Assembly (NCBI GenBank): GCA_022797145.1
Contig: JAAWKA010000003.1
Location: 26,164-90,163, forward strand
Direction: 5' to 3'
DNA from: Clostridia bacterium
GTDB lineage: Bacteria; Bacillota; Clostridia; TANB77; CAG-508
DNA length: 64,000 bases
In this document: one piece after another, positions 17,348-26,082 of the stretch
Numbering within the stretch: position 1 is the stretch's first letter
Layout: each line of letters starts with the position of its first letter
Position numbers and translations under genes: made by a program
The notes under the pieces: generated by a model
The model's database searches: none
What the model was told of the DNA's origin: nothing
What the model saw: only the letters and a program-made list of their open reading frames with translations

Positions 17348-17608
17348 TTGGGAAAAATATATATAGAAGAACGTGCAGTGAATTTGGCACATTATATAAT
17401 AGATAGTGGAGATACTGTAAGGGGAGCAGCAAAAAGGTTTGGAATTTCAAAAAGTACAGTACACAAGGATGTAACACTAAAGAACGGTAAAAGAAATGGA
17501 CATGTAGAGGAGGCTATTAGCTGTCCGATTCTAGAAAGTATTGAGATTAGGAAGGTTTTTTTAGCAGAGAAAAATCCTATTGTGAGGTTGGGGTTGGTGA
17601 TTAAATAA
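17348..17608 (+). CDS. spoIIID: spoIIID 5' portion, interrupted. Codons 1-42 (17348..17474) encode the SpoIIID HTH and the remaining 44 codons are read into the inserted element.
   Basis: TTG start with RBS AAGGGGG. The product matches SpoIIID through ..FGISKSTVHKDV and then diverges. The missing C-terminus is found at 25940..26082. Confidence 0.7.
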   Translation: MGKIYIEERAVNLAHYIIDSGDTVRGAAKRFGISKSTVHKDVTLKNGKRNGHVEEAISCPILESIEIRKVFLAEKNPIVRLGLVIK

Positions 17609-17732
17609 AAATAAGTAAAGTATTTCGAGTTAGTATGCTTGAAATACTTTATTTTTGTTACTAGTTAATAATTAGCAAATAATCTATATTAAACTACTAA
17701 CTAGTAATTATTTTTTTAAGTATAAAAAGGTA

Positions 17733-17763
17733 TTGACATACATTTTAGCACGTGCTAAAATGT
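17733..17763 (+). promoter_or_regulatory. promoter (TTGACA 17733-17738; TAAAAT 17756-17761) overlapped by a 24-bp perfect palindrome ACATTTTAGCACGTGCTAAAATGT (17740-17763)
   Basis: Read directly from the sequence. The palindrome is perfect and the spacer is 17 bp. Confidence 0.5.
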
Positions 17764-17783
17764 ATAAAGTAAGGAGGAATAGT

Positions 17784-18275
17784 ATGAATATAATAAATGA
17801 TATTAGAGAAAAACAAAATCAACTTATTGTTATGATTAATGCAACATTTGATGAACTTGTAAGAAAAGTAGAAGATTTACAATCAGGAAGTAATGAATAT
17901 GAAAAAGAATATGAAAGTGTATATCCAATAACAAATACGACAGGATTTAAGGGAAAGAAACCAATTGCAGTTAAAATAGCAAATGAACGTATAACAGCTT
18001 CTACATGGAAGATAGTTGTTGAAAAAATATTAAAACAAGTATTAAAAGACAGAGAGATGGAAGATAGATTAATGGCGTTGAGAGATAAGATATTAGGCAG
18101 AAAGAGAACAAGAGTGTCTTCTAGCAATGTGACTATGCGTAGTCCATTAAAGTTAAATGAAAAATTATATATAGAAACGCATTATGATACAGAGACTTTA
18201 ATGAACTTTTTAATACAGATTTTAAGTGAAATTCATTATGATTATAATAATATAGAAATAGTAATAAAGAATTAA
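17784..18275 (+). CDS. hypothetical protein (element cargo, first gene of a 3-gene cassette)
   Basis: ATG preceded by AAGGAGG. The ORF-track start at 17733 lies inside the promoter. Confidence 0.4.
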   Translation: MNIINDIREKQNQLIVMINATFDELVRKVEDLQSGSNEYEKEYESVYPITNTTGFKGKKPIAVKIANERITASTWKIVVEKILKQVLKDREMEDRLMALRDKILGRKRTRVSSSNVTMRSPLKLNEKLYIETHYDTETLMNFLIQILSEIHYDYNNIEIVIKN

Positions 18276-18284
18276 TGGGAGAGA

Positions 18285-18758
18285 ATGAAATGTTTTATAG
18301 CAGATCCACACTTTAACCATGAAAATATAATTAAATATTGCAATAGACCATTTGAAAATTCAAATGAAATGAACGAATATATAATAAACAAATGGAATTC
18401 GGTTGTTAATGAAAATGATGTTGTCTATCATTTAGGAGATGTTGGATTTGGGAATACAGAAGAATTAAAGCAATTAGTCGGAAGATTAAATGGTACAAAA
18501 ATATTAATAAGAGGAAATCACGATTATAAAAGAGGATTAAATGGTTGGAAAGAAGTTGGATTTAATGAAGTATATAAAAAGAGATTAGTTTTGAATAATC
18601 TAATTTTAACACATGAACCAATTGAAGTAGAAGAAAATTGCATCAATGTTTTTGGACATATACATGATAAACCATTAGACGAAAGATTTAATAAAGAAAA
18701 TCACATTTGTGTGTCATGTGATGCAATTGATTATACACCTATACCTATTAGTAATTAG
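18285..18758 (+). CDS. small calcineurin-like metallophosphoesterase
   Basis: Motifs DPHFNH, GDVGFG, GNHD and GHIHD. Confidence 0.7.
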   Translation: MKCFIADPHFNHENIIKYCNRPFENSNEMNEYIINKWNSVVNENDVVYHLGDVGFGNTEELKQLVGRLNGTKILIRGNHDYKRGLNGWKEVGFNEVYKKRLVLNNLILTHEPIEVEENCINVFGHIHDKPLDERFNKENHICVSCDAIDYTPIPISN

Positions 18759-23296: not shown

Positions 23297-23438
23297 CGGA
23301 TATGGAGATGACTGTGATAAGAAAAACTGGTTAGATTTATTGGAAAAATTAGAAAAAAGTTTAGAGAAGTAAACAAATTTCTTTTAAATATAGATAAAAT
23401 CAGTAAAATGTAGTATAATAGAAAGAGAGATTAGTTTA

Positions 23439-23879
23439 ATGTTAAAATTATATTTAGATAATTGTTGTTATAATAGACCATTTGATGATTTAGAGCAAGA
23501 AAAGATAAACTTAGAAGCAAATGCTATAGAGAATATATTTAGAAAGCATATAAATAAAGAAGTAGAAATTTATAAAAGTATGGCAATAGATTTTGAGATA
23601 TCAAAAATTAAACCAGATAATAAAAGAAGACAAGTAGAAGATTTATATGATGCAGTGGAATTAATAGAAATTGATTATTCCGAAGAAATAAAGCAAATAG
23701 CAATAGAATTAAGACAATACAATATAAAAGATATGGATTCATTGCATTTAGCATTTGCAACAAGTAATGATATAGATTACTTTATTACTACTGATAGATT
23801 ACTAATAAATGCTTCAAAAAGAGCGAATTTGAAGATTAAAGTTATAAATCCAATAGAATTTATTATGGAGGTGATTTAA
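23439..23879 (+). CDS. PIN-domain protein (VapC-like)
   Basis: N-terminal LYLDN and C-terminal DSLHLAFA..DYFITTDRLL acidic motifs. Confidence 0.45.
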   Translation: MLKLYLDNCCYNRPFDDLEQEKINLEANAIENIFRKHINKEVEIYKSMAIDFEISKIKPDNKRRQVEDLYDAVELIEIDYSEEIKQIAIELRQYNIKDMDSLHLAFATSNDIDYFITTDRLLINASKRANLKIKVINPIEFIMEVI

Positions 23880-24080
23880 ATGGCAGTAACAATAAGAGAA
23901 TTAGAAAAAATAAGAAGAGAAGGTCTTAAAGCTTTAAAAGATAAATTAGGTGTTGAAGGTATGATAAAATTCATACAGATGTATAGTGAGGGAAAAGGAG
24001 ACTATACAAAGGAAAAGTATGAAAATCCAGAAGAATTAACAATAGAAGATTTTGAAAAATTTTTAGCAGAAAACAACTAA
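23880..24080 (+). CDS. small hypothetical protein abutting the PIN gene (possible partner)
   Basis: Its start is adjacent to the PIN stop. Confidence 0.3.
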   Translation: MAVTIRELEKIRREGLKALKDKLGVEGMIKFIQMYSEGKGDYTKEKYENPEELTIEDFEKFLAENN

Positions 24081-24293
24081 TCAAATGTTATCCGCAACCC
24101 TATTTGCGGAATATAAATACATAGGTGAACGGATGTCACTCGCAAACCTACTTGCGACAAATAAATGCGTAGGAGGACAAATAATCACTGACCGATATGT
24201 AGTATATAAATGGTCGGAGAGTAAAGCTTAAAAACTATTCCTAAATATTGGAGTAGTTTTTTTGTGCTTTTGTATTGAAAAAATGAAACTGAT

Positions 24294-25943
24294 ATGCTAA
24301 AATGTAACAGAACGAAAATAAAGATACAGAAAAAAGAAAGTAGTGATGTTATGAAAATTGCAGCATATGCAAGAGTATCAACTGAAAAAGAATCACAAGT
24401 TGAATCATTTGAAAAACAAATAGAGTTCTTTAATGAATTTACCAAAAAGAATAATTATGAATTGTACAAGCTATATGCAGATGAAGGAATATCTGGAAAG
24501 CAAATAAAACACAGAAAACAGTTTCAGGCAATGATGCAAGATGCCAAAGCAAAAAAGTTCGATAAAGTAGTAGTAAAAGATGTAAGCCGTTTTGCAAGAA
24601 ATACAGTAGATTTACTTCAAAGTATAAGAGAATTAAAATCTTATGGAATTGAAGTAGATTTCTTAAACAATGGCGAAATAATGGAAGGGGGTTCTGAATT
24701 TATACTAACCATTTTAGGAGCAATGGCACAACAAGAAAGTGCTAATATGTCTAAAAGGGTTAAATTTGGAAAGGACATCACTGCAAAAAAAGGACGAGTT
24801 CCGAACATTGTATTTGGATATGATAAAATTCCAGATGAAAGATATACTTTAAAAATAAATGAAGAAGAAGCGAGTATTGTAAAAGAAATATTTGAAAGCT
24901 ATGTATATAAAGGAATTGGAACAACAAAGATCGCTTGGGACTTAAATGACAGAGGAATAAGAACGAAAAAAACAAAATCAAAATGGGTACAAACCTCTAT
25001 CGTAAGAATGCTTAAAAATCCAATTTACACAGGTAGAGTTACAAATAAAAAATCAGAAGTAACAGACTTTATAACTGGCACAAGAAAAGACTTACCAGAA
25101 GAAGAATGGATTACAGTAGAAAGACCAGAAATGAGAATTATATCAGATGAATTATTTAATAGAGCACAAGAAATACTAGCTCAAAGGTCAAACGAATTTA
25201 AATTAAACAATAAAAGAGAAAAAACAGAATATGTATTTAGTACACTTATCTATTGCAAACATTGTGGTTATTCTTTTAGAAGAATAAAAAGAAAATATAC
25301 AGCTGATGGAGCAGAATATATAAGATGGGTATGTAGTGGAAGAAATTCAATGGGGGTAAATCATTGTCCTAATACAACTGTTATTGATGAAGAAGAACTT
25401 TTAAATGCAATAAAAGAATATTTAAAAAGTATTATTTCTAATAAAAAGAACTTTATGAAAGCAGTTGAAAAAGAATTTGAAAAGATTACAAAATTAAGAG
25501 AAGCGGGTGAAAGAAGTGAAGAAAATTTATTACAAGAAATTGAAAAAGTAACAGTAAAAAAGCAAAAGTATATGGAAATGTTCCAAAACGAAGTAATCAA
25601 TATTGGGGAACTAAAAAAATATACCAATCCATTAAATGAAGATATTGCAAGATTAGAAAGAGAGTTAAAACTAATCACATCAGAAATCAAAGAAAAAGAT
25701 GTATTAGAAAAAGAATTATCTAAAACAATTAGTACAGTAGATGACATATTAAATAATCAAACAATCACAAATGCAATGTTAAAAACGATTATAGATGTAA
25801 TTGAAGTAGATAGTGATTCAAATGTAGAAGTTAGATTAAAATTACTTAATGAAATAGGTTCTACACCTACAGTTATAACTAATTTTAATGATATTAATTC
25901 AACCGTTATGAAAAGTAACATCGGTACACAAAGATGTAAGTGA
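24294..25943 (+). CDS. large serine recombinase (SpoIVCA/CisA-like) of the spoIIID element
   Basis: Resolvase catalytic domain (AAYARVSTEKESQ...), recombinase domain and a zinc ribbon (CKHCG..C). The probable start is ATG 24351 (MKIAAYARVST). Its stop is immediately 3' of the att core. Confidence 0.85.
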   Translation: MLKCNRTKIKIQKKESSDVMKIAAYARVSTEKESQVESFEKQIEFFNEFTKKNNYELYKLYADEGISGKQIKHRKQFQAMMQDAKAKKFDKVVVKDVSRFARNTVDLLQSIRELKSYGIEVDFLNNGEIMEGGSEFILTILGAMAQQESANMSKRVKFGKDITAKKGRVPNIVFGYDKIPDERYTLKINEEEASIVKEIFESYVYKGIGTTKIAWDLNDRGIRTKKTKSKWVQTSIVRMLKNPIYTGRVTNKKSEVTDFITGTRKDLPEEEWITVERPEMRIISDELFNRAQEILAQRSNEFKLNNKREKTEYVFSTLIYCKHCGYSFRRIKRKYTADGAEYIRWVCSGRNSMGVNHCPNTTVIDEEELLNAIKEYLKSIISNKKNFMKAVEKEFEKITKLREAGERSEENLLQEIEKVTVKKQKYMEMFQNEVINIGELKKYTNPLNEDIARLERELKLITSEIKEKDVLEKELSKTISTVDDILNNQTITNAMLKTIIDVIEVDSDSNVEVRLKLLNEIGSTPTVITNFNDINSTVMKSNIGTQRCK

Positions 25944-26082
25944 AAGATTGCTAAAAATAAATCCAGTACTTGCATTAGAAGTAAGAAGAATATTAGATGA
26001 AAACAAAGCTGAAAGACATATAAGAGGAGGAATGGCTACAAAATTAAAATACAGTCATGAAGGTAAAGGAAATGTTGGATAA
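25940..26082 (+). CDS. spoIIID: spoIIID 3' portion (C-terminal basic region), no start codon of its own
   Basis: The in-frame translation SERLLKINPVLALEVRRILDENKAERHIRGGMATKLKYSHEGKGNVG* matches the SpoIIID C-terminus (..ERLPEINP..IRHLRGGEATKLKY..). Confidence 0.7.

Follow-up and report, generated by a model that had tools for sequence, protein, structure and literature searches.

The locus described here raises the question of what becomes of spoIIID, a sigmaE-dependent and mother-cell-specific sporulation gene, when its reading frame is cut in two by an element that brings its own recombinase. The DNA is a 64,000-nt stretch of contig JAAWKA010000003.1 from a gut member of the Clostridia (referred to as the window, its first letter being position 1; G+C content about 26%), in which spoIIID is interrupted after codon 42 by an 8,465-bp element that holds the gene for a large serine recombinase (LSR) at its right end. 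From comparison with related sequences we conclude that the element is probably cut out during sporulation, rebuilding spoIIID. We consider it fairly likely that it is a spoIIID-intervening element that would combine a constitutive LSR with a sigmaE-dependent directionality signal, with excision in the mother cell and retention in the forespore.

The two halves of spoIIID

The open reading frame (ORF) 17348..17608 resembles SpoIIID only through ..STVHKDV, as an earlier, sequence-only reading of this DNA had claimed, and scores 57.9 bits with TIGR02844, below the cutoff of 111.5 bits. The missing C-terminus had been placed at 25940-26082 by the same reading and is indeed encoded there: the join 17348..17474 + 25940..26082 yields an intact protein of 89 aa that reaches 122.4 bits with TIGR02844, above the 111.5-bit equivalog cutoff, covers positions 2-81/82 of the Pfam family SpoIIID (PF12116) with 130 bits and aligns with Bacillus subtilis SpoIIID (PDB 2L0K) over residues 4-81. 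The 5' segment (17348..17463, plus strand) runs from a TTG start to the positions of the His-39 codon that form the crossover dinucleotide CA described below, and encodes the helix-turn-helix region according to Pfam and TIGR02844 profile positions 2-54 and the alignment with 2L0K. The 3' segment (25929..26082, plus strand), delimited by tblastn and translation, supplies the remaining recognition helix, the sequence down to the C-terminal ERHIRGGMATKLKY region and the stop codon.

Note that at NCBI the 86-aa chimeric ORF (MCI9015897.1) is named 'stage III sporulation protein D', while the 3' fragment (MCI9015910.1, 25948..26082) is a hypothetical protein. Annotation pipelines thus count the split gene as intact, and genome-based predictions of sporulation become unreliable for organisms that carry the element.

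Crossover point and attachment sites

The two junctions share near-identical 16-mers, GTACACAAGGATGTAA at 17459-17474 and GTACACAAAGATGTAA at 25924-25939, with no further match anywhere in the window (0.01 expected by chance). The positions and the near identity of this 16-bp core had been recognized before and hold, but the region of exchange is a single CA dinucleotide and not the 16 bp. For the comparison of boundaries we used 26 complete elements, the window included, for which both halves of spoIIID are present, and three independent lines agree on the CA of GTA-CA-C, at 17462-63 and 25927-28. It is one of few dinucleotides shared by attL and attR at each of the 26 loci; it is flanked by host-type synonymous variation, with Val GTT/GTC to its immediate left in attL and His CAT/CAC to its immediate right in attR; and the dyad ACCGTT..N..AACGGT of the reconstructed attP is centred on it, with 18 of 30 symmetric positions as compared to 5-11 of 30 in attL, attR and attB. 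Exchange at a dinucleotide in the middle of an attP of some 50 bp with imperfect dyad symmetry is characteristic of large serine recombinases.

With the crossover at CA, the integrated element comprises 17464..25928 (plus strand), 8,465 bp, and the insertion point is the codon for His-39, within the recognition helix of SpoIIID. The rest of the 16-bp core is a P' half-site similar to host sequence. Based on the 26 loci and the attP dyad, attL (17433..17493, plus strand) is composed of the host half-site, CA (17462-17463) and the element P' half-site (..CAAGGATGTAACACTAAAGAACGGTA..), and attR (25897..25958, plus strand) of the element P half-site (..ACCGTTATGAAAAGTAACATCG GTA), CA (25927-25928) and the host half-site. 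Excision is predicted to create an attB junction in which ..AGTACAGTACA is joined to CAAAGATGTAAGTGAAAG.. and, on the excised circle, an attP junction in which ..AACATCGGTACA is joined to CAAGGATGTAACACTAAAG...

These boundaries are validated by a conspecific pair consisting of an occupied locus (L044, with an element of 10,873 bp) and an empty one (L231), with flank identities of 99.2% and 99.5%. In the empty locus the flanks are contiguous and correspond exactly to attL-left plus attR-right of its occupied counterpart. Together with the 25 other complete elements, this pair supports the proposal that an element of about 8.5 kb with its own LSR splits spoIIID. In-silico joining leads to an intact gene in 26 of 26 loci, encoding SpoIIID proteins of 82-90 aa with invariant STVHKD(V/L) and ERH(I/M)RGGMATK blocks. 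The uninterrupted spoIIID anticipated for relatives was found in the empty locus, and for five of nine alleles tested an uninterrupted gene encoding exactly the joined protein is present on long public contigs; the window's own join is absent, a point taken up below.

Among 132 distinct attR junctions the C-terminal fragment is intact in about 128 (about 97%), frameshifted in three and divergent in one. The three frameshifts (L045, L132 and L142) share one spot just after ERHIRG (..RGRNG.., or ..RGRSSN followed by a stop), and may reflect a hotspot of mutation, errors of assembly or a decaying split gene. In the divergent case (L179, 1417..1560) the usual right arm (ACCGTTGCGAAAAGTAAC..GTACA) leads into a SpoIIID-like frame (VHMDITKRLEYISLPLYTEV..) without the ERHIRGG block, perhaps a secondary target or a paralogue in decay.

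The recombinase and its promoter

The ORF 24294..25943 matches the Pfam domains Resolvase (120 bits), Recombinase (86.6 bits) and Zn_ribbon_recom (46.7 bits). Judging by the conserved start MKIAAYARVS, translation most likely begins at ATG 24351, giving an LSR of 530 aa (24351..25943, plus strand) with the catalytic motif YARVST at residues 6-11; the upstream start at 24294 is less likely, as it falls on the conserved -10 box of the LSR promoter. The reading frame crosses attR, so that its last five codons and the stop codon (25941-25943) are host spoIIID DNA read in another frame, and the position of this stop next to the right core was correctly noted before. Purifying selection on the LSR is strong, with a ratio of nonsynonymous to synonymous differences (pN/pS) of 0.12 across the family. 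Its likeness to SprA (E = 1.6e-11) and to the TP901-1 integrase is remote and that to TnpX weak (31 bits), and no relative above 46% identity was found among cultured phages or plasmids.

A consensus scan placed an intrinsic terminator (24230-24261) and, behind it, a sigmaA-type promoter TTGAAA-17-TGcTAAAAT (24275-24303) in front of the gene (24230..24303 in total, plus strand), and both are kept in 24 of the 26 elements. The sequence-only reading had deduced that the recombinase would have to be expressed independently of SpoIIID, and this conserved promoter is consistent with such expression.

An in-frame tail on the truncated SpoIIID

Beyond the LSR and the att arms, three features of the element are conserved, namely the terminator and LSR promoter, a small acidic protein, and a tail fused to the truncated host gene. 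The latter was recognized by in-frame comparison of the 26 elements: the 86-aa chimera (17348..17608, plus strand) consists of SpoIIID residues 1-42 and an element-encoded tail, TLKNG..IPESIEIKKVFLAEKNPVVKLGLVIK followed by a stop, with the family pattern TLKNG..IxESIEI(K/R)KVFLAEKNP(I/V)V(K/R)LGLVIK and stop. The tail continues the spoIIID frame in 25 of 26 elements and ends at one fixed stop, in spite of in-frame inserts of 21-24 nt, and its frame shows a pN/pS of 0.225 as compared to 0.95 and 1.66 in the other two frames, indicating purifying selection. As the tail frame has no consistent start codon in the excised form of the element, the tail would be made only as a fusion to SpoIIID(1-42), from the promoter and start of the host gene. 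To our knowledge, a conserved in-frame tail of this kind has not been described for other intervening elements.

The region encoding the tail also contains, in the window (17500..17530) and in L007, L032, L034, L054, L061 and L082, a short G+C-rich, hairpin-like insert (e.g. GGGGCGATTAGTAATCGCCC). In L007 it breaks the frame, and in the others it has 21 or 24 nt and keeps the frame. A possible SpoIIID box (GGACAAG) at the left end of the element was dropped, being present in just 7 of 26 elements; no pairing of the motif with SpoIIID was found in the literature searched.

Selection on a frame that is read from the spoIIID start raises the possibility that the chimera itself works as a SpoIIID, possibly an altered one, with the element supplying a substitute C-terminus and excision being unneeded. 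Its length of 86 aa is close to that of native SpoIIID, its NCBI name is that of SpoIIID, and integrative elements usually keep the function of their target gene (Mageeney 2020). We nevertheless regard a functional chimera as very unlikely, because the tail is unrelated to the C-terminus of SpoIIID, lacks the invariant ERHIRGGMATK block and leaves the protein at little more than half of the TIGR02844 cutoff, while the native 3' fragment has stayed intact at about 97% of the junctions. The hhalign probability for tail and C-terminus is 0.25% and there is no Pfam match to the tail, for which reason its origin as a relic of the spoIIID 3' end was likewise rejected. The C-terminal basic region of SpoIIID is reportedly needed for DNA binding, a further point against a working chimera.

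A candidate directionality factor

The small acidic protein (22848..23042, plus strand, with an alternative TTG start at 22860) has 60-64 aa and a pI of 4.3-4.5, and is the sole cargo ORF found in all 26 elements, although its position varies. It has 1035 homolog clusters, all of them unannotated, and no Pfam or PHROG match; an AlphaFold2 model is a single helix of low confidence (pLDDT 55.8), too poor for a fold search. Like the LSR and the tail, it is under purifying selection. We consider this protein a candidate recombination directionality factor (RDF).

When the 26 upstream regions are aligned, homology between element subgroups starts abruptly at GTAATATTTTT-N~13-AATAGTATT, that is ATA-N16-xATAGTAT. 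Mother-cell promoters of Clostridioides difficile combine a -35 ATA for sigmaE with a -10 of the CATA type at a spacing of 16-18 bp (Saujet 2013), and by eye the block is sigmaE-like against this consensus in the 25 elements other than the window. The window sequence itself has a -10-like box of the mother-cell type, CATAGTAT (22830..22837, plus strand), upstream of the gene.

Distribution and transfer of the element family

Hundreds of relatives with more than 90% identity to the LSR are present in gut metagenomes, and a scan of one genome per species returned 147 relatives, the best 80 of which (at least 85% identity) were examined and are all from metagenome-assembled genomes of uncultured gut Clostridia, some of them complete chromosomes of about 1.6 Mb. 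In 83 of 86 related loci the spoIIID 3' fragment begins directly after the LSR gene; in two of the exceptions (L051 and L090) the contig ends at or just past this gene, and the third (L020) is a tandem array. Both halves of spoIIID are found in 26 loci including the window, at a distance of 4.66-11.55 kb, and about 77 further junctions on metagenome contigs all run into spoIIID. In well over a hundred gut Clostridia, all uncultured, a member of the family thus occupies exactly this position in spoIIID.

Two loci deserve separate mention. In L020 (11626..12456) an attP-like hybrid junction comes after the LSR gene, and beyond it lies the left end of a different element of 84% similarity, an arrangement that places two elements in tandem within one spoIIID by site-specific accretion. 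In L223 (MT838016.1, 2113..3784) an LSR of only 46% identity is followed by a spoIIID 3' fragment starting at the same codon (..TVHKDLTEKLPKISP..ERHIRGGLATKHKY). This 6.4-kb GenBank record from human faeces is labelled 'Bacteriophage sp.' but is really a junction of host and element and not a phage genome, and it shows that the targeting of spoIIID reaches a much wider recombinase clade and hosts of higher G+C content.

The recombinases are less diverged than the spoIIID genes of their hosts (synonymous differences, pS, of 0.43 versus 0.60), and the two correlate weakly (rho 0.29). Near-identical LSRs (pS 0.02) occur in hosts whose spoIIID differs at a pS of 0.63-0.65, which reflects horizontal transfer; conversely, hosts that hardly differ (pS 0.09) contain distinct LSRs (pS 0.385), and one identical LSR protein is present in at least two host contexts. 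By these comparisons the element family is actively transferred. We have therefore abandoned co-divergence of LSR and host as a means of dating the insertions, and the ratio of nonsynonymous to synonymous substitution rates (dN/dS) of the split spoIIID alleles, about 0.10, must be attributed mostly to their history before insertion and is not readable as selection after it. Mob_Pre relaxases were found in two relatives (L007 and L012), so that the family includes integrative mobilizable elements; the cargo of relatives also comprises ABC transporters, nucleases and others. No relaxase was found by Pfam and annotation among the genes of the window copy, which is without this module.

In the lineage of the window the element is found in all ten contigs shown, which come from several independent samples. 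As these contigs are at least 99.9% identical, they show stability only and not long-term maintenance.

Proposed excision during sporulation

In the mechanism that we propose, the LSR would be made constitutively from its own sigmaA-type promoter and by itself would only integrate. In the sporulating mother cell a sigmaE-dependent product of the element would switch it to the attL x attR reaction, for which the 60-64-aa acidic protein is a candidate; a possible second one is the SpoIIID(1-42)::tail chimera, whose synthesis would depend on the promoter of the host gene. Excision would then join the halves to the 89-aa spoIIID, whereas the forespore chromosome would retain the element, which could thus be inherited without cost to sporulation. 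All intervening elements that we know of interrupt genes expressed in the mother cell, and spoIIID is such a gene. In Bacillus and C. difficile SpoIIID switches on both the excision of the sigK element and sigK itself. Where SpoIIID has to be rebuilt by excision, a control of excision by sigmaE plus SpoIIID cannot apply, and the trigger would have to lie one step earlier in the cascade.

A more far-reaching version makes spoIIID a self-repairing switch, in which the chimera produced in the mother cell, alone or via the acidic factor, would license excision by the LSR, so that transcription of the broken regulator would trigger its own repair. We consider this version unlikely. If true, it would mean a SpoIIID-independent rewiring of the mother-cell cascade in more than 100 species of gut Clostridia.

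Several observations weigh against excision in the mother cell. A strict attP pattern gave no match in viral contigs and none in metagenome contigs, and a relaxed pattern for the left arm retrieved about 77 element junctions in contigs, all of them attR and none attP; for the lineage of the window neither an attB nor an attP junction was found in contigs. The absence of attP among some 77 junction contigs is what retention in the germ line predicts, yet it is no proof of it. The exact joined SpoIIID of the window lineage was not found among 15 billion proteins. Although a tblastn search detected no second spoIIID within the 64-kb window, there may be a copy elsewhere in the genome. In the window copy the -35 part of the sigmaE-like promoter upstream of the small acidic gene is replaced, and the C-terminal fragment is frameshifted at 3 of the 132 attR junctions. 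As the elements move horizontally, intact split genes could merely reflect recent insertion. Finally yabG, encoding a sporulation signature protease (Peptidase_U57) on the minus strand at 26620..27476, is broken up into two ORFs that overlap, one at 26985..27476 that covers profile positions 1-158 and one at 26620..26988 that covers positions 162-274. This break is present in all nine covering contigs of the ten same-lineage contigs shown, and since these are independent it is a real frameshift and not an assembly error; it could indicate that sporulation is decaying, or its late genes eroding, in this lineage.

Much of this would be expected of a plain site-specific mobile element, mobilizable or of the Tn4451 type, that uses the conserved spoIIID as a landing site, excises for transfer and leaves its carriers defective in sporulation. 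The yabG frameshift, the frameshifted C-terminal fragments and the missing excision junctions in viral and metagenome contigs all count in its favor, as do the Mob_Pre relaxases and varied cargo of relatives, recent horizontal transfer with independent acquisition, the polymorphism of occupied and empty sites within a species and the tandem accretion of two elements in L020. Loss of sporulation is moreover common in gut Firmicutes, and recombinases of the TnpX type excise without an RDF. We still judge a mere landing site to be rather unlikely. Despite the presence of the element in about 80 species-representative genomes and in all contigs sampled from the window lineage, spoIID, the spoIIQ-like gene, sipL, yunB and the sigF-like gene are intact; the tail is selected in a frame whose translation can begin only at the spoIIID start of the host, which is hard to explain if the locus were dead; and all 26 reconstituted genes are intact.

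The attP-like junction in L020, the only one of its kind, was also considered as a trace of an excised circle, and rejected in view of the tandem array of two different elements at this locus.

Cargo and neighbouring genes

The remaining cargo of the window copy, all on the plus strand, starts with a metallophosphoesterase (18285..18758; Pfam Metallophos, and phrog_547 with 157 bits). It is followed by AbiEi (19227..19778) and AbiEii (19778..20599), a complete abortive-infection or toxin-antitoxin pair (19227..20599; PADLOC 227.9 and 344.6 bits, Pfam AbiEii), by a DUF218 protein (20675..21265; Pfam DUF218, 67.9 bits) and by a protein with an RNase H-like domain and a weakly RepL-like or replication-initiator-like C-terminus (22064..22771; Pfam RNase_H, RVT_3 and a weak RepL match; phrog_531 and phrog_428). 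A protein with a weak Pfam PIN match (23439..23879) and the adjoining 66-aa ORF (23880..24080) together occupy 23439..24080 and, by their adjacency, are possibly a toxin-antitoxin pair. AbiE and the PIN pair could stabilise the element or protect the host from phage. Pfam and PHROG searches of the element detected no capsid, tail, terminase or lysis genes, and its PHROG matches are confined to the phosphoesterase, the RNase H / replication initiator and one family with no assigned function.

The neighbourhood in the window is the canonical sporulation locus of clostridia, a point in favour of an intervening element, and comprises a sigF-like gene, spoIID, an M23 spoIIQ-like gene, glyS, the split spoIIID, veg, yabG, sipL, yunB and mbl. 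The best NCBIfam match of the sigF-like sigma gene is SigF, at 296 bits and thus below the equivalog cutoff of 321. A prophage-like region (33052..64000) contains a second LSR gene (33133..34890, minus strand, 585 aa), an S24 repressor, an AAA_23 protein, RecT and a protein of the metallo-beta-lactamase fold. Identity between the window and the prophage-free L095 extends for 152 nt past the stop codon of mbl and breaks off at 33052, a position within the 5' end of a UPF0004/radical-SAM gene, so that the prophage is polymorphic within the lineage while the element is present in all contigs shown. In this MiaB-like gene after mbl (window 33000..33052; L095, reverse complement, about 15390..15450), ..KIKVAFYTL and GCKVNQYE.. 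lie in different frames, and their persistence in the prophage-free L095 suggests a frameshift or an unusual start.

Comparison with known systems

Uncultured gut Clostridia with small genomes harbour the family in abundance, and it may gate spore formation, and hence transmission, in many gut species. With its compact LSR, its defined attB and attP sites and its candidate RDF, the family lends itself to recombinase engineering. Known targets of sporulation gene-intervening elements are sigK, spsM, spoVFB, spoVR and gerE, interrupted by skin, SPbeta, vfbin, vrin and gin, respectively.

A close parallel in layout is provided by the skin element in sigK of C. difficile, which combines a constitutive LSR, CD1231, with CD1234, a 72-aa acidic RDF without database similarity that is under the control of sigmaE and SpoIIID and restricts excision to the mother cell. 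Common to both are a small LSR element in the gene of a mother-cell regulator, a sigmaA-type LSR promoter and an acidic factor of about 60-72 aa without database similarity behind a sigmaE-like promoter, for the spoIIID element a candidate only. The target, however, lies upstream of sigK in the cascade, and the dependence of CD1234 and skin excision on SpoIIID is inapplicable to an element in spoIIID itself. The spoIIID family also differs in being horizontally mobile and polymorphic and in fusing a conserved peptide to the truncated host gene.

In B. subtilis, skin with SpoIVCA in sigK and SPbeta with SprA and SprB in spsM likewise rebuild a mother-cell gene by LSR excision, as proposed for the spoIIID element, and have the recombinase gene at the element end by an att site. 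These are a defective prophage of 48 kb and an active prophage of 134 kb, whereas the spoIIID element has 8.5 kb and no phage structural genes. Transcription of spoIVCA requires SpoIIID, an arrangement that is impossible for an element in spoIIID. The designation 'skin-like' in the sequence-only reading is a loose one; in its lack of phage structural genes the element is closer to gin or to an integrative mobilizable element. As in the case of gin, which interrupts gerE in Bacillus cereus ATCC 10987 and employs GirC and GirX, a non-phage element splits a mother-cell helix-turn-helix gene of fewer than 100 codons and pairs a serine recombinase with a small accessory factor, again a candidate only in our case. 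With 28.6 kb and three recombinases gin is larger and affects the last regulator of the cascade; the spoIIID element has one LSR and affects an early, sigmaE-dependent one.

Tn4451 and Tn4453 are clostridial elements of about 6 kb whose single LSR, TnpX, is encoded at the end and which, like L007 and L012, carry a Mob/Pre relaxase. Elements with TnpX use many GA-containing sites for insertion and work without an RDF, while the spoIIID family is strictly limited to one site, its copy in the window has no relaxase, and the similarity to TnpX is a mere 31 bits.

The sequence-only reading had been aware of no element in spoIIID. This is outdated, as in Table S3 of Galperin et al. 2022 the spoIIID gene of Ruminiclostridium cellulolyticum H10 is listed as interrupted by a 'skin-like' element of 64.7 kb. 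According to that entry the target is the same and the 5' fragment of 126 nt corresponds to the same 42 codons, but the element is far larger, and the gene for its 511-aa recombinase, Ccel_3111, is found at the opposite end, by the 5' fragment and on the other strand. The entry is a single table line that gives no att sites, RDF or family analysis. We found no experimental work on any spoIIID element in the literature. Relative to these systems, what is new here is how large the family is and that it is mobilizable and not of phage type, along with the mapping of the crossover, the candidates for RDF and promoters, and an in-frame tail under selection.

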